From Marsupella aquatica (taxonomy: Eukaryota > Plantae > Marchantiophyta), in contig OZ316891.1 in the NCBI GenBank assembly GCA_973895155.1, positions 16,829,651-16,893,650 on the forward strand: 64,000 nucleotides of DNA, given 5' to 3'. Within the stretch, counting starts at the first letter, position 1; each line of letters opens with the position of its first letter. A program made the position numbers and the translations under genes. The notes beneath the pieces are model-generated. The model saw nothing but the letters and a program-made list of their open reading frames with translations, had not been told where the DNA came from and searched no databases. Below, piece by piece: positions 28,999 to 63,527 of the stretch.

Positions 28999-29037
28999 AA
29001 CCAAGTGTAGAGTTGACTCTTTCTGAATATTGTAGTC
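28999..29037 (-). pseudogene. Tiny captured ubiquitin fragment
   Basis: Translates DYNIQKESTLHLV, identical to the ubiquitin C-terminal region. Absent from copy 2, where the junction has ATGTG microhomology. Confidence 0.75.
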
Positions 29038-30615: not shown

Positions 30616-30759
30616 AAATGCCTTTGTACCTTAAATGCTAAATATATTTTACTTTCTGTGCAGTCTGCTAAATTGTAGAGTCTATCTAAATGCCTTTGTA
30701 CCTTAAATGCTAAATATATATTACTTTCTATGAAGTCTGCTAAATTGTAGAGTCTATCT
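30616..30759 (+). repeat. 2 x 72-bp tandem duplication upstream of the PHD ORF (copy 1)
   Basis: AAATGCCTTTGTACC...GAGTCTATCT occurs twice. The same duplication is at 49967-50110. Confidence 0.9.
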
Positions 30760-30770
30760 CATGCGCAGGC

Positions 30771-37724: not shown

Positions 37725-38186
37725 TTGTTATGGTTGGTGGCAGTTGGGCTTATTTTACTGTTGGCGGATTGTTGTTTCCTGCTGCCTGGGGGTGTCACTG
37801 TAAACGTACTGGGTGGGCTCAAATCTCGGCGGCAGACTTTGGTGGGTATGTTGCCTTTCCTAGATAAACAGGCGCTATTACGGCTCCTCCTCCGGGTTGC
37901 CATATGGCTGGCCACGGTTAGGACTCTCCTGCATGGGTTGGTGCTAAAACATTTCTTGGCACCGCCTGAGGATGCAAGAGACGTTGAATCTATCGTGAAT
38001 GAGGATGCACAGTCCGAAGTGGACATCTACTTTTCAGCAGATGAGTTAGACAAGCCTGATGTTGTAGGTGGTTCCATGTTGCCTAATTTGGCAGATGATA
38101 TAGTTCTTTCACATGTCTGGCCGAGGGTTCTTGTGGTGTCCTGTGCACAAGATATCTGCAAATATAGATTTAATGTACATGCCTGA
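37725..38186 (+). CDS. ORF with hydrophobic N-terminus and an F-box-like motif (CACTA cargo, copy 1 only)
   Basis: MLPNLADDIVLSHVWPRV resembles the F-box start LLPGLPDDI...LxRL. Region 37810-38325 is missing from copy 2. Confidence 0.35.
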   Translation: MLWLVAVGLILLLADCCFLLPGGVTVNVLGGLKSRRQTLVGMLPFLDKQALLRLLLRVAIWLATVRTLLHGLVLKHFLAPPEDARDVESIVNEDAQSEVDIYFSADELDKPDVVGGSMLPNLADDIVLSHVWPRVLVVSCAQDICKYRFNVHA

Positions 38187-38590
38187 GTACCTGAGGTCTG
38201 AGTGGCATCGAGAACAGGGTTGGTACCCATATCTCACCTGGTAATAAGGTGAGATATGTGATACCACTCTCACACCTGTGCCTGTGACTATACATGATTG
38301 GACTCTGATATGGTCATGGGTGTACATGCAGAGGCGGTACATTTGAGGACAGCAGAGGAGGTGGTGACACCCTCCAACATTTAGGAATTTTGTGTCATTC
38401 ACTTGACAATAGGTACACTACTCGCAAACCTGTTTTTTTCTTTTGGGGTGGTTTAGGGTTTGTGAGAATTTAGTACATGTTATGTTAACTCTTTTGGTAG
38501 ATACAGTCAGGGATATATGGAACACAAATACCACCATTAGGCATCCTTGTTCACTGCTGTCCATGACTGCAGAGCTCCCAGCCTGTTACA

Positions 38591-41500: not shown

Positions 41501-41772
41501 CTTCAGCCTGTTCATATTTACCCAAGCTAATGCTGTGTGGTTGTTTGTTCAGGAAGTATGAGTCATTGAAGGCGGCCCATCCCACTGCAGGAACAACTTT
41601 TCCAGGTTTCATGGAGTGGATTAGAGTGGCAATTAGAGAGCATCACAAGACCTACCCAGACATGGATGCAGACATTTACCTATTGTCTAATGCCCCTAGC
41701 CTGAAAGTGAAGACTTACAAACGGATGAGAGCATATGGGAATCACTTTTGAGTGAAGGATGGTGACAGTGTT
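38591..41772 (+). pseudogene. CACTA TnpD/TNP2 transposase, copy 1, disrupted
   Basis: Near-identical to 52702-55885, with a frameshift at ~40270, stops at ~40882 and ~41749, and interruption by B2 at 41773. Confidence 0.92.
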
Positions 41773-44700
41773 TGTGATGCCTAGACAGGAATCACTCGGC
41801 AGGTTAAGTGGGTAAAGCAGGAAGGCACCCTAGGAACACCTTAGTATAGTGACAAAACAAGGAAAATATAAACAATTAGGGGCAACCATGGAACCCGGGC
41901 AGAGGCCGGAGGTAAGGCTGAGGGTGAAAACCCGATTAGGGTTAGGGCGCGTTAAGCGTCGGCGGCTAGGAAGGATCAACGGGAAGAAGGACCGGCAGAG
42001 GAGAGGGGTAAGGAGCGCTTGCAGGAGATGGTGGCTCATTTGCGAGCACGAACTAGGTAGACGACTACGGGAGGCCAACTACTGTCAGCTGCTTAGGCAA
42101 GCACTCGGGGAGAGAGTAGATACCGACGATCAACCTAAGGAGGGTATGAGCAACGTCAATCAAGCGGCACATTTCTGGGGATGCCTGTTCGAACGGGCAA
42201 CTGAGTACATCAAGACTTACGAGGACGAGGAGTCAGAAAGGGCAGCTCGAGAACGGTAGGAGCTCGCTCGATTGTGGGAGCTGCAGAACACGGCTTTCTT
42301 AGGAGGAGAACTCATCAAGGACGAGTTCCTGTGGACGCCTACTTCCAATCAACTCGACGATCTTCTGTTTTGCAAAGACAGCGTCGTCGGCATCCGAGAG
42401 GCCATCAAGAACTGCAACGACATACACTGGGAATTAAAGGGTAGCACGGAAAGGTGGACCCAGGCAACGGTGCTAGGAGAAACCTCCACGGCAGCAGAGA
42501 TGAAGAGGAAGGGAGCCGTCAACGATGAAGCCACCCCGGCAAAAAGAACGAGGTCGGCGGCACCAAAGAAGCCAGCCGAGCAGCAGAGCAGGAGGCAGGG
42601 AGAAGCCGAAGAGGAGGAGGTCAATCCCATCAAGGCCATTCCAACCAGGGATGACACCTGGAAGGGCTGGGCGGCAACCCTACCGGTGGAGGTGCAACTA
42701 CATTTTGCACGGGAGGAGGATGCATGCTTTACGGCCATGCAGACCAAGAAGTACCAAGGCTTCATGGCCGGATCCGGCTTGGAGGCCTTTGTAAGATTAC
42801 CATGGCTGAAGCCGGAGGTACCGGAGTCAGACCTATTAGAATTCGTGGGGTCATGGGAACCCGAGACCAATTGCACGAGGATATATGGGAAGGATTTCTA
42901 TCTTACTCCACTAGAAGAAAACCACCCATTCTGAGACCCTCCCCTATGTGACTTGTGCGAGACCTTCATAAATATGCGACTCCAAGTTTGTGGGTGTCAT
43001 GTTAGTTACATCATACCAACTAAGTTTTGGTGAGGTTGTGGGAAGTCATGCTTACAACTTTATCCAATGTCGCTATTGTAACACTAGTAAGTAAGAAATA
43101 GGTAAGTTATGTTAGTTACTCCACAATAGTGCAATATGAATTGGACATCATTTTTTAAAATTCCGTCAGCATGCATACCCCATTAGCCAATTTCGGATGC
43201 CAATCCCTAATATGCAACTCCCGGTGCAACTACATATTGCACACTCATGGTTCAATAAGTCCAAATATAATGGGTATAAATATGGGGGTTTTCATCAGAA
43301 TGGTGGGTACTTTCACTTATAATGTGGATTCATACCTGACTATATTTGGCCTTGTTCTTGACCAAAGTGCACTCTCCCCACATTGAACTTTTTGCTAAGT
43401 CATTTGCATTGGTTCTTTTATGTCCAAACCAACCTGTTTGCTAAGTCACTCGATGGCTGCCCACATGTGAGGGGTACTACTTTCCCTCAGGGTCAGTGTA
43501 CCTTGGAGGTTGGTTTTGCGAGAGATTTTGGGGGTACTACTTGCCCTAAGTGTTCAGGGTCAGTGTGCCGCAGAGGTTGGTTTTGCGAGGGAAATTGGGA
43601 GTCGACGACCTTCATTCCAGCTGCACTCTTCGCGAACTTCCTGCAGGGTCGTTTGAAAGTGTTTGAGCGCGACTGGACTTTAGGGTGCAAATGTGTTTAG
43701 GATTGGGCCTGCTACGAGCGTCAGTGTGGAGGTCTGCCAATCAGTTTTGAGGGGAGTCCATTGTCGCTTTTCAACCTGCTGGTGAGCTAAGCTGCTATTG
43801 AGTTTCAAGTGAGAGCTGCCGACTTGGAGTTGAGCTCTACGAGGTGGTGCCTGAGTGTACATCTGCTCGACATACTTTTGGGAGCTCGTAGTTGGTAGGA
43901 GGGCCAAGTCATTGCACAAAAAGTTGCAGCCGTGACAGTGCAAACTAGCTAGGCGGAGGCTGGTTACTGCAAGCAAGGCGGAGGATCACTGCGAGCTAGG
44001 TGGAGGAATGCTGCGCTGCTTCACATTGTGAAGAGACATGCTGCATCGGCCCAAGTAAGGTTGCATTGACCTATCTATCTCTATGTCTATAAGGTCCTAA
44101 CCGATAGTCTGCTTAGTGAGGTCCTGCTTTAAGCTACATTTGTGCGATTGATTGTGTCCTCAGAAGCTTAACCATCACATGGGGGAACGGTAGCGAGAAA
44201 GGAGGGGTGGAGCCTGATGGTCGCCAAATATTCAAACAGGGTCGCCTTGCTCGATATTGGTCTCATTGTTTTTTGCTACGGTGTGAAGGCGGCGGAGCTT
44301 CTAGTCTGACCTTTGAGTGACTTGCGGTGAGCTTCTAGTGTGGCTATTGAGGTCGACTGACCTGCATTGACCGAGCTGATCAACCTACTGAGCTGCCATT
44401 GGGAGTTGGAGGTTGTGTTGCGTTCAATTTTGGAGTCGGGAGGCTAAATGCGATAGCTCTGTTCCGGGCTCTGTTTAGCTAATGCAGACGTTTCTGCTCA
44501 GGAGACGAGGTAAAATCTATCGACCTTCAAGCTGTTGTGAGGTTCATTGAAGAGGGAGGTTGAATGCCTAGCGCTATGAGGTGAGGAAAGAGAGTATGGC
44601 CAAGCTGCATCTTTAGGGGTTTTGCTTCAGCTTTGACCATCTTTCATCGTCGTAATCGCTGCTCTCGCCTATCGCTACATGGCGGATTGCTGCTCTGCCC

Positions 44701-47566
44701 TTTTGGCATGGGTCGCCGGCCTGCTGGATGCTATCTCCAGTTTAAAAACAAGTCATATCCTAAGTCCCGGTGTTGCAGTAGTGTCCCCGACTCTAAGATG
44801 GAACAGAGTATCATCTTTCTTGTTTCCTGCTGCTGCTGATGTATGTCTATTCTCCCCTATTTTTGCTTACTGATTGGTCTCTCCACGCTTCTTGCTTGAC
44901 TTGCTGCTTCCTTCAATCCCCTATCGCGGACTCACCTCGTGGCTGCAAGTATAGTTGTCTAGGTGATGTATGCATTGCGTGTTTAGGGTCTAGGTGACAT
45001 CGCTGCTGAGCAAAATTCGCGAGCTGCCTAGGTCCATTGCCGAATGCTGCTTCCTTCAATCGCCAGGTGCCTGCTGTTACAATTGCCTACTCAATCATGC
45101 ACCCAATCTCCTGGAGCTCATTCGCCTAGAGCTTCATCCGTCAGATTCAAACTATTATTGGACCTCCCTGTTGCCCGAAGTGTATACACTCCTAGCATTG
45201 TCGTCCCAAACTGCAAAACGCTTCTCCCTGTTCTGTCCTCGTGCTTCACTATTTGTATTCAGGTGTTTTTATCAGTTTCAGAGGGGAGGTCATTGTTTCT
45301 GCAAGTTGTTGGTGAGCTAAGCTTCCGCTGTGTGTAGGTTTAGGGAGTTGCGCGTGCGAGCTAACGACTTGGACCTGAGGCCACAATCTTTTAGGGAGCT
45401 TGGAGTGGAAGCCGACAACTTGGAGCGGGACTTCAACTTGCTATTACTAGCTACCTTGGACAAAGGTGACAGTCAGTAGCGCAAAGGTGAGACTCGGTAG
45501 TTTTAGCGGATTGTTGCTCTGCCCTTTTGCCATGGGTCGCCGGCCTGCCGGATGCTACTAGCAGATTAAGAACAACTCATATCCTAAGTCCCGGTGTTGC
45601 AGTGGTGTCCCCGACCCTAAGATGCCACCCAAAATCATCTTTCTTGTTTCCTGCTGCTGCTGATCATGTATGTATGTTCTCCCCTATTTTTGCTTACTGA
45701 TTGGTCTCTCCACATTTCTTGCTTGACATGACTGTTTTGCTCCTCCCTGTATCAGAACATGCCTTGTGCCCCGTGCTCTGGCAATGGGGTGGGGGGCTGA
45801 ACAGACGGCCTTAAGGTCCACTAAATTTATAGGAACCGTGCAATCGTTCAGCTGATTTTAGCAGCAAGTTCCCTTGCTTTCCCCTATTTTTGCTAAGATC
45901 CCTCCCCACTAATCACATGCATCCTTTACTTTTCTCGGTGGCCCGTGCACCTGCCTTCCTACTTTCGTTCTTATGGACTTTCCTTAGGTTTTCTTTCACC
46001 TGATTTTGGACTTTTTGCTCCGGTGGAATCTGTCTTGACAACTTGTGTTTGTTCTAATTGTTAATATCTCAAGAGGGTCGTCAACTAAGCTCACAGGAGT
46101 CAAAGCTAACTACAAGCTAGCAAATAGGGAGAATGCTCCCAAGTCGAGTCAGGAGGAAGTTACTAAAACTAGACCTTCAGAACTCTCGAAACTGGAAAGT
46201 GAAATTCAGCCTGAGACACGCAGCTGAAGGCCACAAGGATAACTATATGGCCACGCTGTCCCTCATTCAAGTCCAAAGTCCTCTTCAGATTGTCTGAACT
46301 CCTATCTGAACTCCTGAACTGGATGAAGTCCTGTCTGAATGTGAAGTTCAGATTGGCAATCTCAAATGGCAAGTTCTGAACTCTTGTCTGAACTTCATCC
46401 ACCCTTCTAAACTGGGATTTGTGCTACGTGTATAGACTCCACATTGTTGCTTCTCCCTTTCGGGCCAGCCCTCCTTGTGAAACGTAGGAGCACGATCATG
46501 GCACTTACACATAGTCTGACATTCAAAAAATGTTACTTCTCAGCAGCATGTTTCGAGTAGTTTGCCTGTGTGTTGAGCCCGGGGTTGAGCCTAATTATTT
46601 GTTTATTGCTTTAGTAACATGCATGGCCAATTGGTTTCTCTTCATGTAAAGGCAAGTTTTTGAAACTTACTACTTGAATTGGTGGTTTGAATTTAGTTAA
46701 GTGTTGAGAAATTAGCATTCACACTAACTATTTTTCTTTTGTGATTGAGTTCTCTTTGCTATTGAATGTATTGAATAATTATTTCATCACAGAAATTTTC
46801 AGAACAAACACGGAAGCACCAGGGGGCTGAGGATTGGATATTGAGGCTGAAGACATTGAGGTAATAAACTGGGTGTGGTTCGGGTGACAATGTTAGCAAC
46901 TGGTGCTTCTTCAGGGGAACTTCCCATGTGCAAAATATCCACACATGATTGACTTTGGTTCTTGCTGTTTTTCTTTTGGTGTACTCTTCAGTTTGGTGTC
47001 ACTCTATCCTTTCTTGTAGCCTCGAAATAGGAACACACCTGCTTAGTGGTCCCCAATTGCCCAATGATTTATAATGACTGTGTCTAGGCGATGTATGCAT
47101 TGCGTGTTCATTCCAGAAGAATGAATATGTACACTTTGCACAAACCTGGACAGATTTTGAATGTTATTTATCTGAGTTTCTGTTTGTGAGCTCTGACTTG
47201 GAGCCTTAACATTTGTGTTTTTGTGGGGCTGAGCAGAGTTTGTTCCGTCCAGAAGCTGCTGTACTGAAGTGATCGGCCTCCGGCTTGGAGGTGAATCTTC
47301 AATTTTTTGTGGATCCGAGTGACTTCTGTCCAGCTGAGTTTTGCTTTGTCGGGACGATTGTGTTTGGCTAAGATGCTAGATTGTGGCTTGTCTTCTTGCT
47401 TCCAGCTTGTGTATATTCAATTAATAGAAGTTGGGAACGAGGTGATAATTGAATTTCCTTATATTAAGCATCTTGACCTAGAAACTCAATACATAAACTC
47501 CTGGAGTCCCTCGGGACATAAAATGAGCCAAATTGTTTCAAAATTGGGAACCTACACCCGCACTAC

Positions 47567-47906
47567 TCAAACAAATGTGTTGGGCTTGGTGGCCTTGTAA
47601 GTCGTCTTTAGCTTTCGCGATGGAGGTTGAATCTTGCGGTACGTCAAGGGGAACTTGATCTTTGAATCATGGAACTGCTTGGTACTTTCTCGCTTGCACA
47701 GAGAGACAGGGACTGTCGTAGTCTTGATGATCTGGATGCAAGGGAACCGAACTCTATGACAAGAAGCCATCTCATCATACATCTGCTGTGTGGTTGTTTA
47801 ATGTGGTATCACAATATTTCTTGTACATGTTGGGATAACCTGTACAACTCTGATACCTCACCCAGATACCAAAGTTCTTAATTGTGGTGGGCTTCTTTTC
47901 GAAGAT
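47567..47906 (-). pseudogene. RPL18A: Captured RPL18a last exon, copy 2 (frameshifted near 47790)
   Basis: Homologous to 28108-28449, with a small indel in the LNGAVEQ region. Confidence 0.88.
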
Positions 47907-48901
47907 CTGGTAGACACATTATTCAGCATTTGCTAACTTCGAAACTAGAAGGGTAACACATTAAACAACAGAGAAACTCACAACATCCTCCTTTGGTCCT
48001 TCAGAGTCTGTACTTTGATTATGAAGTTTGATTGAGTTTCTGTTTACTGAAAGAATGTGACTGTGTAAGAGTTCCGTTTGGCAGTGGATTGGTTGAAGCA
48101 CTTCATGCTAGTGTGTTGTCCACAGCTCTTCAACCAGCTTTCGTCTTCCTTGTCTTTCACCACTTACGATGACATCAATTCAGCTAAGACCATAGAAGGT
48201 TCCAAAGCATCTAACTTGTAAAATCGCATTCTGTTACATCAAGGACTAAGGTGTTGGGTGCCAAAGGAGACAGCACAACAAACACGCTGAAAAGACTTCA
48301 GGACTGGGTTCAACAAGGTAGTGAAGGTGCTTAGAGCCATAGTAAGTATGCATTCTGTATTTTTCTCTGTTGATGTGAGCTTGTGCATAATGGGAGTTGT
48401 AGTTGGCAAGAGTTCCAAATATGAATAGATCCAGAAGTATGTGATCATGTACTTGCTCTATAAAGTTCTGAAGATATAAGCATTTTCTGTTAGACCAGGC
48501 AACTTGGGAGTTGGTAAGTGTCACCTGCATCTGAGGGGCTACACCGGGGGCATCAGTGGAGGTTCACTTGCACAACACGACAACCAGTGAATTTTCTCTC
48601 TGCTGCAACCTGCAAGGTGAGACTTTCGGTCTTTCTGGATGAAAAAACAGGATTTTAATACGATTGATATACATGTCCATCGAGAATATGGGTTTATCAC
48701 CAAGCTCTTTGTCTTAGGAAACTCATAAACTCAGAATCAAATATGTACTATGCACGTTTCATGCTATGTGTATACTATGACCTGTAGTTGAGTGGGAACT
48801 GATTAGTTTAGGTGGTTGCTGTTGGCGAGGCAAGTCGACCTCCTGCTCACCTTGCTCATCAAAGGACGTGAACAGAGGACATCACAACAAAAGCAACACT
48901 T

Positions 48902-49351
48902 ATGGTGAGGACCCGCAACGCTGAACATGTGCGACTTGCACGCAAGGCAGAGATGTTGCGCCTTGAGTATGTCAGACTTGGGATCCTTCCAGCCCAGTCT
49001 GCATGGTACTTTGAGTACCCTGTTGTTTCCAGGAACAACTACAGCCGGCCTCTACTTGCTTCAGTACCCTTCCCGACATCCTTGGTATTTGTGTCTCTTG
49101 TACATGACCCGCCACAAATTAGGTGCCAAGGGTGTGTACACAGTTGCCAATATGACTGTCCTGCCTGTAGGGCTTCTGGCCCAGAATTGGATGACCGTTC
49201 TCTTGGATGCCGATTTTTGCATAGAGCATAATGTATCATTTGGAACCACTCGCCATCCTGCAGTGTGCCTGGTGATGTCACTTGTCCTGCCCTCCCAGAC
49301 CCCACCACCGGTGACTTTGGTGTCTACACATGTTTGGATCACATGCTCTAG
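48902..49351 (+). pseudogene. Cys/His-rich ORF, copy 2 (CAA>TAA at ~49229)
   Basis: Colinear with 29551-30000. Confidence 0.4.
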
Positions 49352-50121
49352 AGGACCACTTGTCACACCGCATGCACAGACCAGATACCATTGACCTATA
49401 GCTTAACACTCTGACTTCAACACAGAGGATATTTACTTAAAATTTTGATGTATGAGCAATTTTGGGTCCAGGGTTTAGGGTCAACAGTATATAACTTATA
49501 TCCTATTATGCCTGCACTAAGCAAAATATCCTAATTTAAGAGGCTAGCAAACTCGCATAAAAGTCTCTATTGAAAGACTGCTTTCATGACTGCTTTAACC
49601 TGGTGAACATTGCAACGTTGAATGAATTAATGGGCCATGTGATAATATGCAAAATGATTTATGCCTCACTTATTTGTCTCAGCCACTATCATAACCTATT
49701 TAGGATGTATAAATTTCAACCCTTATGACACTGCTTCATACCAATCCTCTTCGAAGAATGCCTGTTTTACATGTCACGACTATTGTATGTGATTCAAATG
49801 CATGAAATGTTGTTGCAGATCTCCTTTGGTGAATCATAGCCACAATTAAAATTGAGGTGTTGGTGGAGAAATTGTATTAGGGGATCAGTTTTGTGTGTGG
49901 GCTCAACATACCAAAAGTATGTGTGCTCTGCATCCTTGTGTGGCCATTCCAATTCATTGCAGTAGCAAATGCCTTTGTACCTTAAATGCTAAATATATTT
50001 TACTTTCTGTGCAGTCTGCTAAATTGTAGAGTCTATCTAAATGCCTTTGTACCTTAAATGCTAAATATATATTACTTTCTGTGCAGTCTGCTAAATTGTA
50101 GAGTCTATCTCATGCGCAGGC

Positions 50122-50802
50122 ATGGCACGGCCTAAAATTCAAGCCAAAAAGCGTGTGACAGAGGTGAGAAACACAGGTGTACTTGGGGCAGATGCTACTA
50201 ACTTCTCTCCAAGTCAGATTTTCCAGAAGGCAGCTCATTGTTGTGCCATTTGTGACGATGGTGGGGGCCTGGTCATTTGTGAGGGCCCTTGCATGAGGCA
50301 TTTCCACCTCAACCCGGAGTCTGACCTTGCTGCAGAAAACAACTGTCCAGGGGTGGGCCTCCCGTCAACACACCAGGGAGACTGGATGTGCACTGATTGT
50401 TTGGAGAAGCAGGCTAAGTGTGCACAGTGTGGGAAGTTGGGGTCCTATGAGGGCTCTGTTGATGCTGCAGCAAATGTTAGGAAATGTCCAGACCGTTTTT
50501 GTGTGAGATTTTTCTGTTTTGAGTGTTTGCCTGCTCATGCCACAGCTTGCCCACTTCATAGGTGCAAGGCATGTGGTGAGCATGATGATGACTACTGGAC
50601 TGACATAGTCCACTGTGCTAGGTGTCCCACTATGTGGCACTATCATTGCCTGAAAGATCATCAAGCAGAGGGTTATGCTTGTGACAGAGAAATCTATGAT
50701 CACTCTGCACATGGTGTTGATCGATGGATATTTTATTGTCATCGCCATGCCATTGATCCTACCTCGCGCACTCCTGTGAGAGATCACATATCTTGGCTGT
50801 GA
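50122..50802 (+). CDS. Stand-alone EDM2-like composite PHD-finger module (NSD-type PHD array), intact 226 aa
   Basis: CAICDDGG..CEGPCMRHFH / C..C..LGS / CPLHRCKAC / CARCP..WHYHCL / IFYC..H.ID...TPVRDH follows the EDM2 PHD region in order (recalled from memory). Preceded by a GCAG acceptor-like site. Confidence 0.85.
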   Translation: MARPKIQAKKRVTEVRNTGVLGADATNFSPSQIFQKAAHCCAICDDGGGLVICEGPCMRHFHLNPESDLAAENNCPGVGLPSTHQGDWMCTDCLEKQAKCAQCGKLGSYEGSVDAAANVRKCPDRFCVRFFCFECLPAHATACPLHRCKACGEHDDDYWTDIVHCARCPTMWHYHCLKDHQAEGYACDREIYDHSAHGVDRWIFYCHRHAIDPTSRTPVRDHISWL

Positions 50803-51395
50803 AGCTGAACATTGTACATGCACAGTGCACCTGATGTGGATGTACTATTTTTTGAGATTGCAGAGATTCCAATTTTGAAAAGGAGTTGGGTAGGCGAGTT
50901 TATATAGGCAGCACTTATCTTGTGCTCTGGCGTCAGTGGCTGGGTACATGCCTATACAAACTTATCCTTACAAGCCTTCTTGGAAGTATTTAGGCTGAGT
51001 GGTCATTTTCATAAACACTTTCATCACACTGCTAAATTAAAACAGGACTTCTAAGTTGTAAGCGTATAAATTATCAGGCATGCAATTAATCAAATTGCCC
51101 TATAAGTTTGTCATTGAATGTATCCTCCTTTACAACAAAATATGTATGTGCCATGACAAGTTGGTTGCACTTCATTTCACCACGGATATGGATTTTGTAG
51201 TATATATTCAAACAATGTCCTGCATCCGTGCAGGTGCCTAGTACGTATTGTGTGACATATCCCTTGTACCTATCAAAATCGGACCTGAGCACCAGTGGGC
51301 CAGATCAACTCAAAAAGCAGGAATTTTGTTGTCCTTGTATTGTCAGGTGAACCCATTCTTCCAAAATTCACTGTCATCACGTAGGGTGTGTGTAC

Positions 51396-52268
51396 ATGGA
51401 GCCTGGTAAACGTAGAAAGTGTGACCACCCAGCAGTGTTTACAGGGGTCAGAGCGATTTTGGTCCATGGCCAGCATGGGTTGACCAAAGTGCATTGGCCA
51501 ACTGTACAGAAACGATTCTCTGAGCTCCATGGCACTGTAGTTCAGGACATCACTCCAGAGACTACACATGTTGTTGCAGGGACATGGCTATCAGTGATAA
51601 AGAAGTGGTCATGGTCCTACATGAATTCTGCAATTACTAAGCAAGGCCTAAAAGTAGTTGAGGCCTCTTGGATCACAGATTCCATAGCACATAAGATTGT
51701 ACAGGATACTGAGCAATATGAGTTGTGGGAGGATGAAGAAGCTACTGCATCAGCTTGGGCTGAACAAGAAGTCTGGGAAGCAAAGGCACGGCTTGCTGAT
51801 CTCCAATATGGACCTGTACTCAACAAAGGACAGAGCTCTACAAGGCTGAAGAGTATGTTGGCTGAGGAGACGAAGCAACCAACCCCCATTCTGAAAGGGC
51901 TGAGCATGGTATTTGTGGAGGCGGGAATTGGAGAGGTTAAGTGCAAAGTGTACAAGTCCACAGTGCTTGACCTAGGTGGGACAGTGGAGGAGAATATAAC
52001 AGAGGACACCACTCATGTCATTACTAAGTCATATCCCAAAGCCTGCCGCAAGTTTGGGAAGGGAGACATTCGCTTTTATGTCATGTCCCATAATGTGTTT
52101 GTGGTTTCATATGCTTGGCTTGTGGAATCAGTAGCAGCTGGGAAGCGTCAAAACCCAATGGACTATGATCTTTTTGAGGCCTGGCCACGGAAGGGTCAGG
52201 ATCCTTACAGAGAGGACTATGAGACAACAAGTGAGGAATGGGTCATTAGCGATTCTGAATCAGAGTGA
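51396..52268 (+). CDS. Tandem BRCT-domain protein (DNA polymerase lambda-like BRCT), intact ~290 aa
   Basis: Two repeats: FTG..HGTVVQDITPETTHVV..VVEASWITDS..YEL and LKG..LGGTVEENITEDTTHVI..VVSYAWLVES..YDL. Acidic tail. Confidence 0.8.
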   Translation: MEPGKRRKCDHPAVFTGVRAILVHGQHGLTKVHWPTVQKRFSELHGTVVQDITPETTHVVAGTWLSVIKKWSWSYMNSAITKQGLKVVEASWITDSIAHKIVQDTEQYELWEDEEATASAWAEQEVWEAKARLADLQYGPVLNKGQSSTRLKSMLAEETKQPTPILKGLSMVFVEAGIGEVKCKVYKSTVLDLGGTVEENITEDTTHVITKSYPKACRKFGKGDIRFYVMSHNVFVVSYAWLVESVAAGKRQNPMDYDLFEAWPRKGQDPYREDYETTSEEWVISDSESE

Positions 52269-52701
52269 GGAGTAGTAGCATCAGTTTGGACACAAGTTTT
52301 TTTGTATAAATCAGATCATTGAAATAAATGTGATCTTTGAACTAATGTACCTTGTTATGGTTGGTGGCAGTTGGGCTTATTTTACTGTTGGCGGATTGTT
52401 GTTTCCTGCTGCCTGGGGGTGTCACTGTAAACGTACATGCAGAGGCGGTACATTTGAGGACAGCGGAGGAGGTGGTGACACCCTCCAACATTTAGAAATT
52501 TTGTGTCATTCACTTGACAATAGGTACACTACTTGCGAACCTGTTTTTTTCTTTTGGGGTGGTTTAGGGTTTGTGAGAATTTAGTACACGTTATGTTAAC
52601 TCTTTTGGCAGATACAGTCAGGGATATATGGAACACAAATACCACCATTAGGCATCCTTGTTCACTGCTGTCCATGACTGCAGAGCTCCCAGCCTGTTAC
52701 A

Positions 52702-55700
52702 ATGCACCCTGGTCACCACCCTCCCCAGACCCAGCCCAGGGCACAGGCACTGCCTTTGCATCATCCCACAAGGATATCACGCCATGATAATAAGCTTTGG
52801 CAGCGTGAAAGGTTACGAACCAGACTTTCAGGAGCCAGTAGGATGAGATGTCCTTGTGCAATCTGCCAAGGATCCCGTACCAGGGGTCTGAATGAGGTTT
52901 GGCGGCATATCGCGGTTCATGGAAGAGATCCACGACATCGAGTTTGGAATGATCCTGCAGAGGAAGATTCTTCCGACGAGGAGTGGAGGTTAGAATTTGA
53001 TGCTGCCAATGCTGCAAGACGGGCAAGTGAGGTTCTGCCTGGTGCATTTGAAAATGTTGTAGCTGGTCTCTGTGGGTTGTCAGCTCTCCAACGGGATGGT
53101 GCTCAGGCAGCACCACGTGACGAAGGAATTCATGTGGAAGAGATGGTGAGAGACATCTTCCAAGACTTGGATGCATTTCATGATGGGCTGGACAATGAAG
53201 AGGATACGGCTGCAGATGCAAGTGTGCCCCCTGTCGAAGAGCCTCTTGATGAGTTTGAGATAGGGCAGGAAACCCCTGGGCATGATGGGATGTTTGGCTC
53301 TCCCCTGCAAATACAGGAAGGCAGGAAGTCTTTGTACCCCGGTAGCAAATGTTCTAAACTGGGATTTGTCATCATGTTCCTGAACATTTGCGGCAACCAC
53401 AATGTCCCCAACGTTTTGGTTTCTGAGTTGTTGGCATTCTTGCGAACAACTGTGCTACCAGATGGTAATATTTTGCCCAAGAACATGTACGAGGCAAAAA
53501 GATGCATATCTAATCTTGGATTGAACTATGATTCGATCCATGCCTGTCCTGATGGGCATGTTCTTTTCAGAAAGGAGTATAAAGAATCGTTGACATGCCC
53601 TAAGTGTGGGAAGCACAGGTATCGGAACTCAGGAAAGTCTATGGTTCCCGCCAAGGTACTTCGTCATTTTCCACTCATTCCCAGACTTCAGCGGATGTTC
53701 AGAAGCCGTGCCATCTCGGAGATGATGACTTGGGCAACTGACAAGAAAAGTGATGATGGGCTACAACGACATGCTGCAGATTCAAGGCAATGGAAACTCA
53801 TAGATGAGATGTATCCCGAATTTGCTGCTGAGCCGAGGAATGTCAGACTTGGGCTGTCATTGGATGGGGTAAACCCATTTGGAGACAAGAACAACAAATT
53901 TTCATGCTGGCCTGTAACTATTTTGAATTATAACCTTCCTCCTTGGATGACTACAAAGCGATTTTTTGTTCTGATGGTCCTACTGATACCAGGGCCAGAC
54001 AGTGCTGTATCTGCCAACATAGATGTGTTTCTGGCTCCCCTAGTGGAGGAATTGAGAAAGCTTTGGGAGGAAGGAGTTCTCACATATGATGTCCTACAGA
54101 GGCTTGGGAGGTTAAACCCATTCATCCTTAGAGCCATTGTCATTCTGACTATAGCTGACTACCCAGCCCATGGGATGATATCAGGCCAAACAACAAAAGG
54201 ATATTGTGCTTGTACTATCTGTGGGCGCAATGTCACCAGTGAGTACTCCAGAGCCCTGCAGAAAGTGATATACATGGGCCATCGTCGTTTTCTGAAGACA
54301 GATCACCCTTACAGAGAAAGACAGGCACTGATTGCACACTTTGGCAATGAGATTGAGCAACGTGGACCCCCGGCACGAGTGACCAAAGAGGAGATCAGGC
54401 AGTGGGGAGCACTGAGGGATGACTATATCAAACGAGGGGGCAGGGAAGATGGAGTGAGTGATCCAATAAAGCGATATGGTGTAAAAAGACTGAGCATATT
54501 GGACTTGGAGCTCAAGTACTGGAGGGTAAGCCTCTTGGAGTTGATGCTAATTGGGATACATGTTTTGGTTCAGAGCATGTGCATTCATTTCGAAGAGAGA
54601 GACTAAACTTGAGGCATTTCCTGACGCTTTTGCATTGCAACGATGCAGGAGTTTGAGCCAAGCAAACATAACATTGATGTTATGCACATTGAAAAGAATA
54701 TTTGTGAGAGTCTACTCAGATTCTTGTGTGGAGAGAAAGACACTGGTTCAGTGAGATTGGATCTTGAACAGAGGGGAATGAAACCCCATCTTTGGTTGAG
54801 GCCACATGCCCACAGAGCTGATGTGCTCTTGAAGTACCAAGCGCCCTATGTTCTGACAGACACAGAGTGGGAACTATTTGTGCAGAGGTTGAGTTCTTTG
54901 AAGGTTCCTTCAAACTATGGCAGTGCTTTCAAGAAGCATATCATGACTAGAAAGCTTGGTAGTATGAAAAGCCATGACTACCATATGTTGATGCAACAGG
55001 TGTTGCCTTTATGCCTGAGGGGCCTGTTGCAGAAGCCTGTTCGTACTGTGATCATGCGACTCAGTGATGTGTTTCGTCGTATTTGTGTGAAGGTTTGGGA
55101 TGAAACACACTTCCCACAACTGACAGAAGATGTCGCTCAGGTGCTGTGTGACCTGGAGATTTATTTTCCTCCCGCATTTTTTGATGTCATGACCCACCTA
55201 CTTGTCCATGTTGTGGAAGAGCTACACCAATTTGGGCCTGTGAGTGCTCGTTGGTTGTACCCTTTGGAACGGTACATGAAGCTACTCAAAGGTCACGTGA
55301 GAACATATTACAAACCTGAAGCAAGCATGGCTAAAGGTTACATCAAGGATGAGACTCTGGGATTTCTGACCGAATACATAGCACAATATGAGCATGTGAA
55401 GACCAGGGTGTGGAATTCTGATGAGGAGGAAGGGGTGGTAGGTGAAGTACTGGAAGGGGCTGCAACCACAAAGAACCTGACCATATCTATGAGAGACTTG
55501 GCACATGACTTTGTATTGCACAACACTGTGGTGATGGAACCCTGGATACAGTGAGTGCATACATGTGCTATAATCCAGTTCATGAGCTTAAATGTTGTGT
55601 TCGTGTGGTTTTCTCCTTCAGCCTGTTCATGTTTACCCAAGCTAATGCTGTGTGGTTGTTCGTTCAGGGAGTATGAGTCATTGAAGGCGGCCCATCCCAC

Positions 55701-56433
55701 TGCAGGAACAACTTTTCCAGGTTTCATGGAGTGGATCAGAGTGGCAATTAGAGAGCATCACGAGACCCACCCAGACATGGATGCAGATGTTTACCTACTG
55801 TCTAATGCCCCTAGCCTGAAAGTGAAGACTTACAAACGGATGAGAGCATATGGGAATCACTTCCGAGTGAAGGATGGTGACAGTGCCTACAGGGTGACGA
55901 ATGACTGCGGGCTCATCACTGTATTTGAGCAACAGAGCCACAATCACGACAGGGCCTGGATGGAGATGGGATATGTGGGAGAATTAGTTGACATATGGGC
56001 TCTGGACTATGGGGCGGTGTCCAGTCCTGTGATTCTTATGAAAGGTTCATGGGTGCGGCAGGATTGGCTTGGTAACAGGGCTACCATGAAGAGAGACAAC
56101 GACGGTTTCTTGCTGGCCAATTTCAGAGGGAAATTGCCCGAATGGTCTGAGCCATTTGTGTTTCCTAGTCAGGTGGAGCAAGCTTTCTTCCTGGATGTGG
56201 AAGACTCCCCAGGTTGGCGTGTAGTGTGTCATAAACAGGCCAGGCAACGCCGGATGGAAGGATCAAACCTTGAGTTTCATTTACACTCTCATAGTGCCTT
56301 TGATCGTTGGCGTTCAGACCAAGTGCCTGTAGTTCATGATAGCGGGGACTTCATTCCTGTGACAAGGGTAGATGCATTTGCTGAAGGAGGCGAATTCAGA
56401 GATGCAGATGCCAACAGTGTGCCTGTGCCATGA
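52702..56433 (+). CDS. CACTA TnpD/TNP2 transposase (Transposase_21, DUF4218, DUF4216-type regions), 3 exons, apparently intact
   Basis: Exons ~52702-54525, 54649-55550 and 55668-56433 join in frame at GT-AG sites. Motifs CPCAIC, IHACPDG, RNVRLGLSLDGVNPF, DYPA, DVMHIEKN, FFDVMTHL, YPLERYM, EPFVFPSQVEQAFF. The true start is uncertain. Confidence 0.93.
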
Positions 56434-56589
56434 GTAATGTGAATTGTTTGCATAGACATTAGTGAGGGGAAGGATGTGTAATAAAGTAATTCTGAAGCAA
56501 CACAGATGTATGGATGGATGCCTGGTGATTGTGGTTGCATTGTGTTATACGGGGTGACCATAGATGACATGTTTTTGTGGTCCAGTAGG

Positions 56590-59500
56590 ATGGAACAGAG
56601 TGACACAGAGATGTGTGAGTATGAAAGGAAAGCTATGGAACAACGAGCATACGTGAAAGCCAAAATCGCAGAACTGGATCTGGAAAAGGATGTGGCTGAA
56701 TTGTAAGGGAACGATTCTCAACTACACCCCTCCGCTGAGTTTGTGTGACATGAATAGTTCAATGTGGCACTGAAATTGTGACTGTATTCTCATATTGGAA
56801 TGTCGCAGAGCCACAGCATTTTCAAAGAAACAAAAGGAGTACGCAAGAAGGGTGACCAGCACTATCTCTGGGCCTGTGCGTCGGAGTGACAGGTTGAGCA
56901 AGAAGGTCGTACCTACAATGGCAGAATGTGGAGATGACATTGATGCTGCACAGGTGGGTGCAGACACTAGACAAGAAGATGCAGATGATGAGTATTTTCC
57001 AGAGGAAATGGATGAGGATGGGGGTTATGAAGATGAATACATTGCAGAGCAGCCCCAAAAGAAACATGTAAGTAGTTTTCCCAACAAGGTTTTGAGTTAA
57101 AAACTCTTGTTTAGAGGTTTCATATGTTCAGTACTACACATATGTACCTTGCTTAGTTCCTGACATTGTAGTTGGTGATGTGATGCAGCGTCCTGCCAGT
57201 TCTGTTTTGCCTTCGAAGCCTGTGCATGCACCATACCAGCAGGGGGGGCTGACCTCTGATCAAGGTTGGCGAGGTGGTAGTAGTGGTAGATCCCAGGCTG
57301 GTGCCCAATACTATGGCAGGGGGCAAGCTCTAGGTTATGCCCGTGGTAGAGGCAGAGCAGGTCCAAACCCACAATCTCGTGGGTATGGACGTCCACCTCA
57401 ACCGTGGGGATGTGAGTATATATCTATATGCCAGTTCTTTGTGAAGGCATGGCACTCCTGAATTTCAGACTGCATATCAATTTTTGACATTGTTTGGGAT
57501 GTATTGGATTCAGACAACATGAAATTCTGTCCACCTGCCATTGCATGCAGATTCTGCCCAACCTGATTGGGCAAATGCTAGTAATGATCAGTTCCAATGT
57601 CCACAAGGACAGACATGGGTTGAACCAGGTTGGGAGGATGGTGGTGGGTCGTGGAATGAACAAGGTTGGGAAGGTGGTGAAGGTAATTGGCAGGGATATC
57701 AAAATTCAGTACCTACAAACGCTGGAAGAGGAGCAGGTAATGTCTGATCTTGTCAGCAATGGAAGAACTCATTATATGTGGAGTCCATTCACGTGGGGGG
57801 GACTCTGCACATGTATAATGATAGAAAATGTATGTGTGCAGGTTGGACAGTCGAACCATCGACTCAAGTATTCACTAATGCCCCTATGCAGATGCAGCAC
57901 GGAAGGGGGACAGGTATGTCGGTGAATGTTCAGTTGTTTTCCTACAGTTTGTACTTAGTTTTCAGTACATATGTTTGCACACACATACCTAGAAAGTGAC
58001 ATCATCCGGCCCCTGTACTAGGCTGGACAGGTGGTCCAGGGTCGCAACAATTTCAGAGTGCAGTCCCTGCACAGGCATCTACAGGCAGAGCTACAGGTAT
58101 GTATGTTTGAAGAATTTTTCTTGAAGTGAAGCATTGAATGTTGCCGTCATCCATTCTGCTATATGTAGTTCTCAAGCATGAATGGCATTGTATTTTCCCA
58201 GGTGGCTTCAGAACCCCAGGTAGGGTGAATGAAGGGGTGGCCAATACAACGCCCAGTACTACCGAGAGCAGTGCACGAGGGGAGGTGACAAAGAAAGGGA
58301 ACGTAAAGTTGAATGAGAGACAATGGGTGGATGCTGAGTGTCCTCGCAAGAACCGATGGCATGCTGATTTGAAAGCTGAAGTATTGCGTTGGTTAGATGT
58401 GAGTGTTATTAATTTTAAAAAACAGCATCCAAAAGATTGGAAGACTGTATGTGAAAATGTTGCTGCCAAATGGAATTATGTGGGCAGTGATGATGGCGTG
58501 GACATAGGTTGCCTAGAGAGTACAGCAGGTAAAATTATCAAGCAAGAGAGGTGGAGAATGCATAAGGCTTGGAAGGAAGGTGGGGAGAAGCCAGATATGC
58601 CTCCACCAGCCAGTTGTGATGATAAAGTGTGGGCAAGGTTAGTAGCTTATTTTGTAACAGATGCTTCAAAAAAGAAGAGTTCACAGATGACCGAGGCCAG
58701 GTTGAGTGTTCAGAACCCTAATCTGACAGGAAGGACCGGCACTGCACCGACAGCTAAACGTTTGGTAAGAATGAATGGCCTAGCTATGTAATTTATGCTA
58801 CACTATGTACTATTTTTTAGTGTACTGTCCCTACATGTAAACTTTGTTTTTTAGTGTACGTTCCCTGAATATTGATCGATAACTTGTGTTTGCCATGCAT
58901 GTGCAGAAAGCCCAATTGGGGCAAAGCCCTTCAAAAGAAGAGTTGAGGGCTGAAATTGTGAACACCCGGGCTCAAGAGGGTGCATCTGAATCCTCCAAGC
59001 ATGTAAGTTATATGAGTTCTGATTGGTAATTGAATGACCTGCGTTGAATTTCAGGTGTACACTGTATATAACATTGATTGTGCATATATTGCCCAACATT
59101 TCATATGGAGTGATTGAACCTATACCCCTGTGTCATGTAGGGAGGTGGATCTTCACTTACAGAGATAAGTGGTCGTTTGAAGGCTGTCGAAACATGTCTT
59201 CCAGAGATCAATGAACGTTTGAATTCATTGACTGACTTGTTCCATGTGAACTTCAAGACATTAATGGAAGCTGTTGTGTCGGTGAGAGATAAAATTGATT
59301 CCAATTCTGCAGGAGTTCCACCATCACCACTTGAGGTGGCAAAGTCGATGCACTCTTCTGGCATGCCAACGACATGTAGGCTTGAAGGTAAGGCCTTTAC
59401 AACTGTGTGGGATATGATTATTAAATGTATAGTTTGAATTGACATTGTTTGTTGAATGTGTTATTTTCAGTAACATATATTGTGGTTGTTGTGTCCATAG

Positions 59501-60297
59501 AGAATAAGACAGGTGCTACAGAGAAGAAGTATGAGAACCTGGCAAATACTCGCTGTAATTTAGAGGCAACAAAGTTGCAGTCTGTACAAGCAACTTGTTT
59601 GACAGAGGGCAGTCAACCATGTTTGGATGAGGATGACATTGGCAAGGGAGTGGATGATATCAATGTTGGGGCAAATGAGGATATCAGCAAGCATGACAAT
59701 GATACCATTGAGCCAGATTCATGCTATGTAGATCTTGACTCCATTGCAGAGATAAATGATTTGCAGAATGTATCATTCTCAATGACAGGTGTGCCTCTTG
59801 TTGAGATAAATCCAACCAAAGAGTTAGTTGGTATGACACTCCCAGGTGATGAACCTGCTACTGTGACAGTCCTAACAGAGGAACCTACTGAGCCTAGCTT
59901 CACTACTGTGAAGAGAGGAAGCATGCGCACACGAAGCAAGTCTGCTGGTGGGAGCAGAGCCACGTCAAAGGTTTCATACAAACCTCCAAGAACAGTGCTG
60001 GCAGAAAGATCTAAGGTGGAAGTGGGGAAAGCACCTAATGCTGAGGGACAAAGTGGCTTGTTAGCTGTTGATGAGAGTGGAACACGAGTAGGATTTGCCA
60101 GAGTGCAGGTTGGTTCCACAACGTTCCATGGCAAGAGGATTCCCCCAGGTTATTCAGTAGTGTTAGTCACATTACTAGTGAAACCTAAAGCTGTCCTTCC
60201 CATTCCAAACACAAATGATGATCCTCCTCAAAAGACACTTGGAGATGCTGCAGGTTCTTTGGTATTATGGCCAAGCAAGTTCATAGAGGATCCATAA
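56590..60297 (+). CDS. CACTA TnpA/TNP1-like second gene, multi-exon
   Basis: Short GT-AG exons from 56590. 58202-58765 has a Ptta/En/Spm-like W..LV.YF..SSQMTEAR..TGRTG region. The last exon ends FHGKRIPPGY..V..LPIP..TLGDAAGSLVLWP. Exact exon structure is not resolved. Confidence 0.75.
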
Positions 60298-60814
60298 CAA
60301 TGTCATGCCATTATTTGTTTGTAGTGTGAGTCATGTTATGTAGATTTTAGATGTCAAGAAACAGTACAAGAATCATGTCCTCTTGGAGATTCATAGTATC
60401 ATGCATGTGCTTTCAGTTATCTCATCCTACAGTCATCAATTATGAGTTCCTGTTTTGTCTAAATTACATTGATCACATTGTAAACTATTCCATTGGAATT
60501 CAAATGATCTTCATTTTTTAGCAAGATTGTGATTGTGTTTAATTCTTATGAATGTTTTATGTAGGATCTGCTTATATGATGCTTTGTTTCATGTGGATGT
60601 CATTCATGCTATGTTCATTTCTTGTATTCAATGTGTTATATTTCTAAAGTTAGAACATCAGGTTTCTATGTATTGTAATGTCGAGTGCTCTCTCTTCTTA
60701 TGAACTGTCCCTCTGTGTTCATTAGTCATGGTTATAACTTGCATGTGATCCTTATTAGTTATAAACATGAGTATATAGAGTCCCAAATGGTTCTGTTGTG
60801 TGACGCGGGCCAGG

Positions 60815-61140
60815 GTCTCCATTGGTCTCTCCTGTGACACTAAATAGTCACACGCTAGTCGTTGTTGAATGCGGGTAAGTCATGTATGTGATTTACGATG
60901 TGACTCGCTGAAGTCATATTGCAGTCACGTCGAAACAAGGCTAGACTCCACAATAAAGTCACAGATCAGTCACAAATGGGTATCAAGCAAGTTGCAAAGC
61001 CCAGTATCAATAGTGACTTCCATTTTTTGGTCTCAACTTTTGCAACTCCAAGGGTCACAGCGTGGGTCAAGTCACGTTGAGTCACAATGAAGTCACATGA
61101 GCCAAAATGAGTCATATATTGCGGTCTCAGTTCACCTCGG
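60815..61140. repeat. CACTA subterminal repeats (GTCAC/GTGAC core, both orientations)
   Basis: Dense TGTGAC, AGTCACA, GTGACT and GAGTCAC motifs beside the right TIR. Similar motifs lie near both left ends. Confidence 0.7.
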
Positions 61141-63527
61141 ATTCTTCTAGTGCTCCCAAGGTGATTGCCGAAGTGTTTGGCTTGCCGATGGGCAATAAGA
61201 CCAAAGTTGATACCAGGAAGACCTTGCCTGACAAGGAGTTCCGGTCGTTCCCCGGGCCATCAACGAAGAATGGCTTCTTCCGGAACACCTGCACCAACCC
61301 GCACATAGGAGAGATGATCGACTTCTTGCGGGTGACCATGCATTGTAACTTGCCGAGGGCAGAGATCGGCAAGGCACAGGTCTATCTGGCAGAAAGGCCA
61401 AACCCAAGCCGGGACTACAACGGGTACCTCCTCAACCAATTGAAGAAGATCTTAAAGGAGGAGCAGCAGGTAATCGGCATGGGGAGCGTGTCGCGGCTTG
61501 GCTATCACATGCCGCTGTTGTGCCGGTATGCCAGAGGTCAGACTTTTGCCCCGGTACTTCCCCTGCAGGTAAGGGCACCCGAGGAAGCTCCAACGCCGAG
61601 GCCGTTGGCTGAGAAGCCTCAACCACCTGTTAGTCCTACGATCGAGCAGGTGTTTAGGCCCAGGAAGGAAGACTTGCCGATGCAGCAACCAGGCATGCAG
61701 AGTCTGCTGAAACTACTGGAGAAAGAAAAGAAATCGGCATCGGCAACAACAACGGCAACGGCAACAATGCAGGACACTACTACAGAGGTAGGCCTACACC
61801 GGCTCACAAGAGAAAACCCCTTTGCTGGAGACAAGGAGAGAATCAGGCCGGAATCCAAGCCAGGTGTTCGAATGTACGTGGGAACCTCAAGCTCCGAATC
61901 TGAGGCAGAATTGCCTGAAGCTCCTACCGAGGAAGAGGAGAGGGAGAAGCCGGAAATCCAAGAGGTAGAGGAGGCAGTGGAGGACTGCAGCCATGATAAT
62001 TCCGGCTATGGGTCGGACCATCACGTTCCAGGAGTAAGGACCTGTGGCCGGTTTGTCCCCACACTTCCAAGGGTAGTGCGAGGGGACCCCAACCGGCAGA
62101 GTAGCCCTGAGTCTCCCCCACCAGATGTTGCTCCCCCGAGCTTCGACGGCATAAAACAGACGGTGCAGGAATTTCAGGAGCGAATCAAGCAGGAGGAAGA
62201 GGCCGCCCTGGCTAAGGAAAAGGATTTACCAGGAGGAGATTGGCCGGAGGACATCAGGCGGCTAGCCGAAAAAGGAAGCAAACCTCTAGCCACGATTGAA
62301 GAGATCCGCAGGACGGCTTGGGAGCAGAGGCCACGATGGGCGATGCCGATCACTTCTACTTACTCCACCTACGCTAAGAATAGAGCCATGGAGTATGGTG
62401 AGATGTGTGGGGAACTTGCGCTCGGCATCTTTGGAGAGGAGTTGGAGATAGGACCCTTTTTCCATAGGGAGCAGTTGGAGAAGCACCAATTAGAAGAAGC
62501 GGTGGCTTTAGAGAGAAGCAAGAAGGACGAGGTCATTCGGCGGCTTAGGAGGATGGGAGCCGAGATTGAAGATCTAAGGGCGGCCAAGAAAGCCCAAGAT
62601 GAACTGCGGATTAAACGACATGAGCTGAACATCATGCAGGGGCAGTTGGACGCCGCGCAGGCTGATAATCAGAATATCAAGGATAAACTGACTCAGACGC
62701 AGGAAGAGTTGGCCGACACGATCAAAGAAAGGGAAAAGTGGAAGCAAGAGCTGAAGAATACAGAGGAGGCCCACATAACAGCCAACAGCCGGGCCATGGC
62801 GGAGACCCAAAGAAAGGAATGGGCGTTGAAAGGGGAGCTCGAGAAAATCCGCGGAGCCCTTGAGCAGAAGGAGGTCGAGTTAGGGAAATCCTATCAAGGG
62901 ATTATGGCGCTGCAGCAGGAGCTTGCGTCCCTGACGGCCAGCTTCAAGGCCGACCTAAGGGAGAAGGACGAGATGCTCGAACAGACTTACGCCAAGATGA
63001 ACCAGATGGAGTCTGTCATCATTGCAGAGCTCGACAAGGAGCTAAGAGCAACCCAGGAGGAGAGGGCTACCTTGAAGAAGGAATTGGAGGAAGCCCACAG
63101 GGAGCAGGAGGAGGCCAAAAACGAGCTGGAGGGGGCACGTAAGGACCTGGATGAAACCCAAGAGGAGTTGGAGGAAATCACGAGGAAGATGGAGAACCTA
63201 CAGCGGCGGGCCGACAACCAAACAGAGCGGCTGAAGAAACAAGCCGCAGTATTTAAATGCTTAGCTGCAGCAGGTCCATCTCCTGTTGGGACAAACCAGT
63301 TACCAGGGGTGGTAATTGCCGAAGGACAAGCCGCGCCACCTACACCAGTGCCGGAAGTAAGTGGGAAGGGGAAGGGACCAGCTGCCGAGCCACCAACGAA
63401 GAAGAAGCGGAAACCTTCAGGGTCAAGGAGTAATACGACTTCACAGGCCGTGGTGATCAAGGAGGTAGACCCAGCACCGACCCCAGACAGGGTCACGGCT
63501 AAGGATCCAACTACCCTAGGGGAAGGG

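Follow-up and report, generated by a model that had tools for sequence, protein, structure and literature searches.

The window analysed here is a stretch of 64,000 nucleotides (nt) from the liverwort Marsupella aquatica (assembly GCA_973895155.1, contig OZ316891.1, positions 16,829,651 to 16,893,650 of the forward strand; all coordinates below count from its first letter), in which self-comparison with blastn revealed two related long repeats that are two copies of a CACTA transposon. Both copies carry, in the same order and on the + strand, a Cys/His-rich open reading frame (Cys ORF), a PHD-finger ORF, a twin-BRCT ORF and the transposase gene TnpD. The three single-exon ORFs lie upstream of TnpD and TnpA and are co-oriented with them; they make up a real and probably undescribed accessory cassette of three genes in a CACTA family of plants.

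Copy 2 (42909..61152, + strand, 18,244 base pairs (bp)) is structurally complete, with terminal inverted repeats (TIRs), a target duplication and an empty site. Its left TIR, of CACTA type and 11 bp long, is found at 42909..42919 (+) and its right TIR at 61142..61152 (-), the latter preceded by about 350 bp dense in short subterminal repeats, which in this copy occur chiefly at the right end. A 3-bp duplication, CTC, flanks the copy at either end, and the empty site (joint 42905-61153) is present in Logan contigs of all four public runs compared. TnpD (52702..56433, +; exons 52702-54525, 54649-55550 and 55668-56433) encodes 1163 amino acids (aa) in an open splice model, with Pfam matches to Transposase_21 (E 2e-70), DUF4218 (E 5e-28) and DUF4216. 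It is followed by a TnpA-like gene (56590..60297, +) of 10 modelled GT-AG exons, open over 876 aa and with a weak match to Transposase_24 (E 1.5e-4, below the Pfam cut-off); both exon structures are GT-AG splice models drawn from the sequence and not from transcripts. The TIRs, the 3-bp duplication, TnpD and the TnpA-like gene are thus all present, and the element is a member of the CACTA/En-Spm group.

In copy 2 the Cys ORF (48902..49351, +) has 149 codons and a premature stop at codon 110; the PHD ORF (50122..50802, +), a stand-alone EDM2-type PHD-finger block of 226 aa with a basic N-terminus, is open, as is the twin-BRCT ORF (51396..52268, +), which encodes 290 aa ending in an acidic tail. 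In copy 1 the Cys ORF (29551-30000, +) is open over 149 aa, the PHD ORF (30771..31451, +) has a stop at codon 35 and the BRCT ORF is broken. The original prediction had described a cassette of four ORFs lying in the same order and orientation before TnpD in two related CACTA copies. This arrangement is borne out for the Cys, PHD and BRCT ORFs, and the PHD and BRCT ORFs are indeed open in copy 2, whereas the Cys ORF, although present in both copies, is open only in copy 1, and the fourth, F-box-like ORF was found in copy 1 only. The predicted co-orientation of TnpA holds for copy 2, the only copy whose TnpA falls within the window. Just before the PHD start, at 49967-50110, a 72-bp tandem duplication in both copies doubles a strong-looking splice acceptor. 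The left arms (43300-45730 and 16450-21750) align in patches only; they hold internal repeats and several splice-donor-like sites, and possibly represent variable non-coding 5' exons.

The element also contains pieces of host genes. The last exon of RPL18a (eL20), captured with its splice acceptor (47567..47906, -), is frameshifted in copy 2, and 59 of 73 aligned columns agree with plant eL20 (about 81% identity). Between the copies it shows three synonymous and 10 replacement codons (three of them next to a gap) and one frameshift. Since the piece is antisense, frameshifted and rich in replacements, it is passive cargo, and a recent, decaying capture. A ubiquitin C-terminal scrap (28995..29072, -) was recognised by eye in copy 1 only; both scraps are antisense, as had been noticed. 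A 512-bp block (37810..38321, +), again restricted to copy 1 and flanked by 4-bp microhomology, holds the 112-aa frame that had been called F-box-like. This label was abandoned, as neither the frame nor its last 36 aa gave a Pfam match at E<=0.1, and the search of the PDB gave no F-box at E<=10. Loose contig ends in run X2 resemble the end of this block, so that its presence may vary among members of the family. Like the RPL18a exon, the ubiquitin scrap counts as ordinary passive cargo, and so does the F-box-like piece.

Copy 1 (16305..41772, +), which starts with CACTG, is decayed: three insertions of long terminal repeat (LTR) type lie inside it and a fourth cuts TnpD exon 3. Copy 2 itself resides in an LTR-type element, whose halves (41773-42908 and 61153 onward) match another copy at 32076-36794, and it is this element that interrupts copy 1 at 41772, in TnpD exon 3. 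The two CACTA copies are therefore nested rather than in tandem, and copy 1 is the older. In run X1, possibly the source of the window itself, the contig of the PHD-BRCT spacer has a depth of 1641, with 1554-1782 for TnpD contigs and 474-498 for two left-arm contigs, and in run X7 cover is high on the PHD bin (2718) and the TnpD bins (225-2580) and falls to 1-4 beside PHD, although contig depth in these runs is no copy number. With the spacer about as deep as TnpD in X1, these patterns fit a high-copy family whose cassette travels with the transposase and, in X7, a diverged family conserved in its coding parts only; copy 2 is a near-intact member of a high-copy CACTA family.

Relatives and conservation of the three proteins

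The PHD protein is matched end to end by five proteins of 217-245 aa, with 82, 75, 53, 37 and 38% identity. A profile of these five yielded 564 protein matches at E<=0.001, and the best 150 of them included 14 further short relatives (19 in total, with identity down to 37%) as well as many long proteins. Ten matches from outside the short family were looked up: two are clusters named ENHANCED DOWNY MILDEW 2 (EDM2), from Physcomitrium and Neltuma, and one is an unnamed JGI protein, while the other seven, from liverworts, Sphagnum, a fern and a grass, are annotated as hypothetical PHD proteins. Against the moss (Physcomitrium) EDM2, residues 35-226 of the profile could be aligned, C-terminal extension included (34% identity, E 6e-28), whereas the alignment with an NSD-like protein reached residue 179 only; likewise, the motif of the C-terminal extension was found in 105 of the 150 profile matches and in none of the four NSD-like ones. 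The domain scan of the PHD ORF returned PHD matches only, while the full-length protein L001 carries DNMT1-RFD, and the ORF is without the N-terminal RFD domain and the long C-terminal methyltransferase-like region of full EDM2. With a repeat of atypical PHD fingers and the C-terminal extension both present, the ORF is a stand-alone EDM2-type PHD block. No direct match to this block was found in the PDB. The earlier description of this protein as a chromatin reader can thus be refined to the PHD block of EDM2, a reported binder of histone H3 dimethylated at lysine 9 (H3K9me2), the role itself being predicted from sequence.

An IQ-TREE tree of 44 rows was built from nine near-complete short members, 31 EDM2-like proteins, hand-chosen from 136 having the full block, and four NSD-like ones. 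A long branch with support of 100/100 separates the nine short stand-alone rows from all the others, and the short family has in common a His-to-Cys ligand change and the loss of an insert of about 20 aa, both in the second finger. In approximately unbiased (AU) tests, for which groups were named after inspection of the tree, a grouping with short grass paralogs was rejected (p-AU 0.014), while groupings with liverwort EDM2-like paralogs (p 0.36) and with moss EDM2 (p 0.26) were not. The grasses (L002-L007; P0035, P0043, P0038, P0056 and kin) have separate short PHD-only EDM2 paralogs of about 270-400 aa, which look like an independent trimming of EDM2; three of them start with a Met-Ala-Arg-x-Lys pattern, like the short family.

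None of the 16 short relatives looked up, out of the 19, has a record in NCBI or UniRef, and since the family is thus absent from annotated proteomes, it is probably hidden by repeat masking. By eye, nine of the 19 break off or leave frame inside the fingers, although contig ends could do likewise. In metagenomes, a locus search produced 11 loci, which were grass transcripts of EDM2-like type and PHD genes unrelated to the family, without a match to other proteins of the element, and the locus search for the cassette gave none in viral contigs and one weak match in prokaryote genomes. As had been proposed, the PHD ORF is much further from host sequence than RPL18a (34% to Physcomitrium EDM2 against about 81% to eL20). 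The long residence in the element suggested earlier, and selection on the PHD, BRCT and Cys ORFs, find support in full-length relatives of the same length at 37-82% identity, in kept zinc ligands and in a clade far from host EDM2.

For the other two ORFs, relatives were searched among proteins of similar length. The BRCT protein has two, of 294-295 aa, at 60 and 54% identity, and the Cys ORF has two at 54%. The two BRCT repeats align with each other ungapped (25% identical, E 6e-12), which points to an internal duplication. They lie about 50 residues apart, while the phosphopeptide-binding tandem of BRCA1 type has closely packed repeats with a pSer pocket. In the PDB they match several different proteins, all weakly (Rtt107, BRCA1, ligase IV; E about 1e-3 to 1e-2). 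In the ESM Atlas, repeat 2 matched generic BRCT clusters only, under 0.9. Thus, what stands of the repair adaptor claimed in the original prediction is a BRCT fold, with no donor gene or partner identified. A possible likeness of the repeats to the BRCT domain that DNA polymerase lambda has in plants was borne out by no search. The Cys ORF matched no family in the Pfam scan and gave no usable match in the ESM Atlas. AlphaFold models built from 3-sequence alignments were unusable for both proteins (mean predicted local distance difference test score 36.5 for BRCT and 45.7 for the Cys ORF).

Between the copies, the Cys ORF accumulated 10.5 synonymous and 5.5 replacement changes, a replacement-to-synonymous rate ratio (dN/dS) of 0.16-0.23 (p 0.001-0.009); TnpD shows synonymous to replacement counts of 13:16 in exon 1 and 4:8 in exon 2. 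Selection between species was tested on proteins, by neutral simulations run to the observed identity (500 each). In the PHD protein, 84-100% of the Cys and Trp positions are retained, whereas the simulations gave 39-82% and none of them reached the observed value for any of six relatives; at 40-45% identity, 0-2 of 500 simulated frames remained open. In the BRCT protein the substitutions are conservative (1 and 6 of 500 simulations) and the frame stayed open in 0 of 500 for both relatives. These conservation patterns are unlike neutral decay. The Cys ORF has also diverged by 3.6% between the copies, entirely by transitions and about twice as much as PHD, BRCT and TnpD (1.3-1.9%), which hints at a mosaic history within the family.

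Possible roles of the cassette

Taken together, the completeness, arrangement and conservation of the three ORFs make it likely that they are the element's own accessory genes, kept by selection. On their functions we are more reserved: the balance leans slightly towards a PHD protein that reads chromatin for the benefit of the element, while a repair role for the twin-BRCT protein is tentative and falls somewhat short of an even chance. The reading as a whole, that is, a selected accessory cassette with an EDM2-derived reader and a BRCT adaptor, is suggested here with moderate confidence.

Previous studies on EDM2 give this hypothesis a frame. At intronic transposons EDM2 reportedly binds chromatin that carries H3K9me2, and it is described as suppressing proximal polyadenylation (PMC7529245); binding of its PHD repeat to histone, depending on modification, is cited as unpublished in another report (PMC3632883), and IBM2/ASI1 and AIPP1 are named among its partners (PMC10241880). 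We hypothesize that an ancestral element captured only the PHD block of EDM2, losing the N-terminal RFD and the long C-terminus, and that the resulting protein may dock on marked (H3K9-methylated) nucleosomes, where it would serve either as a shield or as an adaptor to the element's own proteins. Such docking would keep the family expressible and mobile in heterochromatin. The twin-BRCT protein may act as an adaptor at the break made during cut-and-paste excision or integration, a role drawn solely from the general behaviour of BRCT domains. Each ORF may have a separate spliced mRNA that begins in non-coding exons further upstream; the hints are weak, since the AG site found within 200 nt upstream of each ORF ranks in the top 0.3-3% by an ad hoc acceptor score but was picked as the best of many. 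A fuller scenario is doubtful as a whole. In it, an old CACTA clade would have taken the PHD block of EDM2, the reader that allows transcription to pass through heterochromatin, and trimmed it into a mobile reader with an H3-like N-terminus; together with a duplicated BRCT adaptor and a zinc-binding protein of a novel kind, this reader would belong to a multi-gene operon, expressed by splicing, that reads silencing marks and manages break repair for the transposase.

Several results weigh against the selected-cassette reading. Between the copies, the PHD ORF shows three synonymous and 10 replacement changes and the BRCT ORF three and nine, giving ratios of 0.85-1.4. The original prediction had proposed dN/dS with RPL18a as a control and had named values near 1 as evidence against itself; in the copy pair such values were found for PHD and BRCT, with 0.16-0.23 for the Cys ORF, and we put them down to the decay of copy 1. 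In fact, 13 of the 14 polarisable replacements in PHD and BRCT fall on copy 1 (five more are ambiguous), an excess expected from decay after insertion, and because the replacements are nearly all on copy 1, the pair neither supports nor refutes selection on PHD and BRCT in the active lineage. Copy 2 is intact except for its Cys ORF, which is interrupted, and the signal of this ORF in the protein simulations is weak (substitution type 17 and 269 of 500; open frame 27-37 of 500). Of the six PHD relatives, P0003 has a substitution type that is not conservative (302 of 500), and that of a second relative is borderline (31 of 500). Furthermore, the simulations carry a bias, since database proteins are open frames by selection and a profile search rewards cysteines. 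The distant PHD relatives are known as proteins alone and are not placed inside transposons, the cassette ORFs are known from DNA sequence alone, the tree does not settle where the short clade attaches in the EDM2/NSD tree, and the PDB and Atlas searches found no donor gene for the BRCT repeats. Finally, because the second PHD finger of this family is altered, H3K9me2 binding cannot be assumed.

The PHD protein might instead steer integration, tethering the complex of TnpA and TnpD to heterochromatin so that new copies land harmlessly in repeats, with silencing not relieved; chromoviruses and RAG2 offer precedents for the steering of integration by a reader domain. Copy 2 does lie within an abundant LTR-type element (empty-site depth 10831 in X1) and EDM2 is reported on transposable element chromatin (PMC7529245). 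However, a single insertion of this kind is expected by chance in a repeat-rich window, and the PHD protein is separate from the transposase, any contact between them being hypothetical, so that steering is unlikely.

A less probable explanation is that the ORFs are passive cargo of Pack-CACTA type, that is, recently captured pieces of fast-evolving unannotated host genes, with the relatives being those genes or copies of them. The element does capture host pieces, as the RPL18a exon with its acceptor and the ubiquitin scrap illustrate, short PHD-only EDM2 paralogs are annotated as genes in grasses (P0035, L004), and both the near-1 ratios of PHD and BRCT between copies and the relatives known as proteins alone, their genomic context unseen, would be consistent with it. 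Nevertheless, the three ORFs are complete, intronless and co-oriented from start to stop, unlike the antisense scraps, and the rejected grouping with the grass paralogs, the X7 cover concentrated on the PHD and TnpD bins and the low ratio of the Cys ORF argue against recent capture. The lack of any NCBI or UniRef record for the short PHD relatives looked up (0 of 16) speaks in the same direction, as do the nine of 19 broken inside the fingers, as decaying repeat copies are.

The N-terminus also invites a third interpretation, in which the PHD protein would be a decoy whose mimicry of the H3 tail sequesters or diverts the host proteins that read or write H3, or a switch that bends back onto its own PHD finger. 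The copy 2 protein begins with Met-Ala-Arg-Pro-Lys, H3 begins with ARTK, viral and G9a mimics are of similar size (PMC6028506), and Met-(Ala/Thr)-Arg-x-Lys precedes the first finger in nine of the 16 short relatives having an N-terminus, against three of 123 proteins longer than 300 aa, although the counting rules differed slightly (anywhere before the finger versus the protein start). We consider the decoy improbable, because a short basic motif can equally be a nuclear-localisation signal, the related members reduce to one origin, the first 27 residues match nothing in the PDB at E<=10 and copy 1 has Pro in place of Ala.

Neighbouring sequence

Two families of insertions bounded by TG...CA surround and interrupt the CACTA copies, one at 23775-27786 and 13812-15938 and the other at 32076-36794 and, in two parts, at 41773-42908 and 61153-64000. 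They measure 4.0 and 4.7 kb, have 5-bp target duplications and gave no internal LTR pair; their long + strand frames (633 and 292 aa; about 1250 codons) have coiled-coil Pfam matches only. They look like giant solo LTRs containing a protein gene, and the empty-site contig of the second family is very deep in X1. The left arm of copy 1 holds a small LTR element (16833-20200) with 143-bp LTRs that are 100% identical, a 5-bp target duplication and a purine tract; it carries an antisense ABC-transporter fragment and appears very recent and non-autonomous, with captured host sequence. Outside the CACTA copies, a host gene for a DEAD-box helicase with an Mtr4-like beta-barrel lies at 5920-10181 (-), decayed frames resembling ORF1 of long interspersed nuclear elements (DUF4283, zinc knuckle) at 12046-13012, a 105-bp tandem duplication at 11272-11481 and a further CACTA-type terminus motif (+) at position 676.

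Comparison with known systems

With CACTA/En-Spm elements the element described here shares the CACTA termini, the 3-bp duplication, the subterminal repeats and a spliced TnpD followed by a multi-exon TnpA-like gene; what sets it apart is that three more complete ORFs precede TnpD. For maize Spm, the anti-silencing factor reported is TnpA itself (PMC10398659). Pack-CACTA transduplication explains the RPL18a exon and the ubiquitin scrap, and probably also the block of 512 bp, but transduplicated pieces are fragments with close similarity to the host gene, unlike the cassette ORFs, all three of which are complete and distant from it. In the literature covered, we found no CACTA-borne PHD, EDM2 or BRCT cassette; most subscription journals, Repbase and supplements were outside this scope, so that a repeat-database entry may exist, and a term search of the main text of PMC13547354 returned no mention of PHD or BRCT.

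EDM2, a component of the ASI1-AIPP1-EDM2 complex, has the same whole PHD block and C-terminal extension (30-34% identity), with the zinc ligands kept. It differs in its length (about 550-1600 aa, against 226 here) and in having the RFD and the long C-terminal region, while the PHD ORF is intronless and transposon-borne and has a second finger with the His-to-Cys change and a deletion of about 20 aa. A DNA transposon encoding a PHD finger has been described before in the case of Rehavkus, which is related to Mutator-like elements (MULEs); there, the hosts are animals and the finger is part of the transposase rather than a separate EDM2-type gene (PMC6446971).

A probable functional likeness is to the accessory genes of VANDAL MULEs, namely VANC and those of Kaonashi (KIU, Ulp1-bearing), which are likewise extra genes encoded by the element; they are described as partly of captured host origin, as long kept and as linked to the evasion of silencing (PMC13317346). 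Among the element ORFs scanned, Pfam found neither a VANC nor an Ulp1 domain, the VANDAL elements belong to another superfamily, and VANC recognises DNA motifs in related elements, whereas the PHD protein is a predicted histone reader. The counter-silencing proteins described in the literature covered (VANC, TnpA and MURA) work via recognition of DNA sequence or DNA demethylation; if our reading is true, the cassette would represent a counter-silencing route at the histone level, taken from the host's own H3K9me2-associated reader. Whether such elements exploit the EDM2 read-through pathway or steer by chromatin marks would then become testable, and the 226-aa reader would be a handy compact model for the EDM2 PHD block. 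By analogy with these systems, it is likely that the cassette works as accessories of the VANC and KIU type do.

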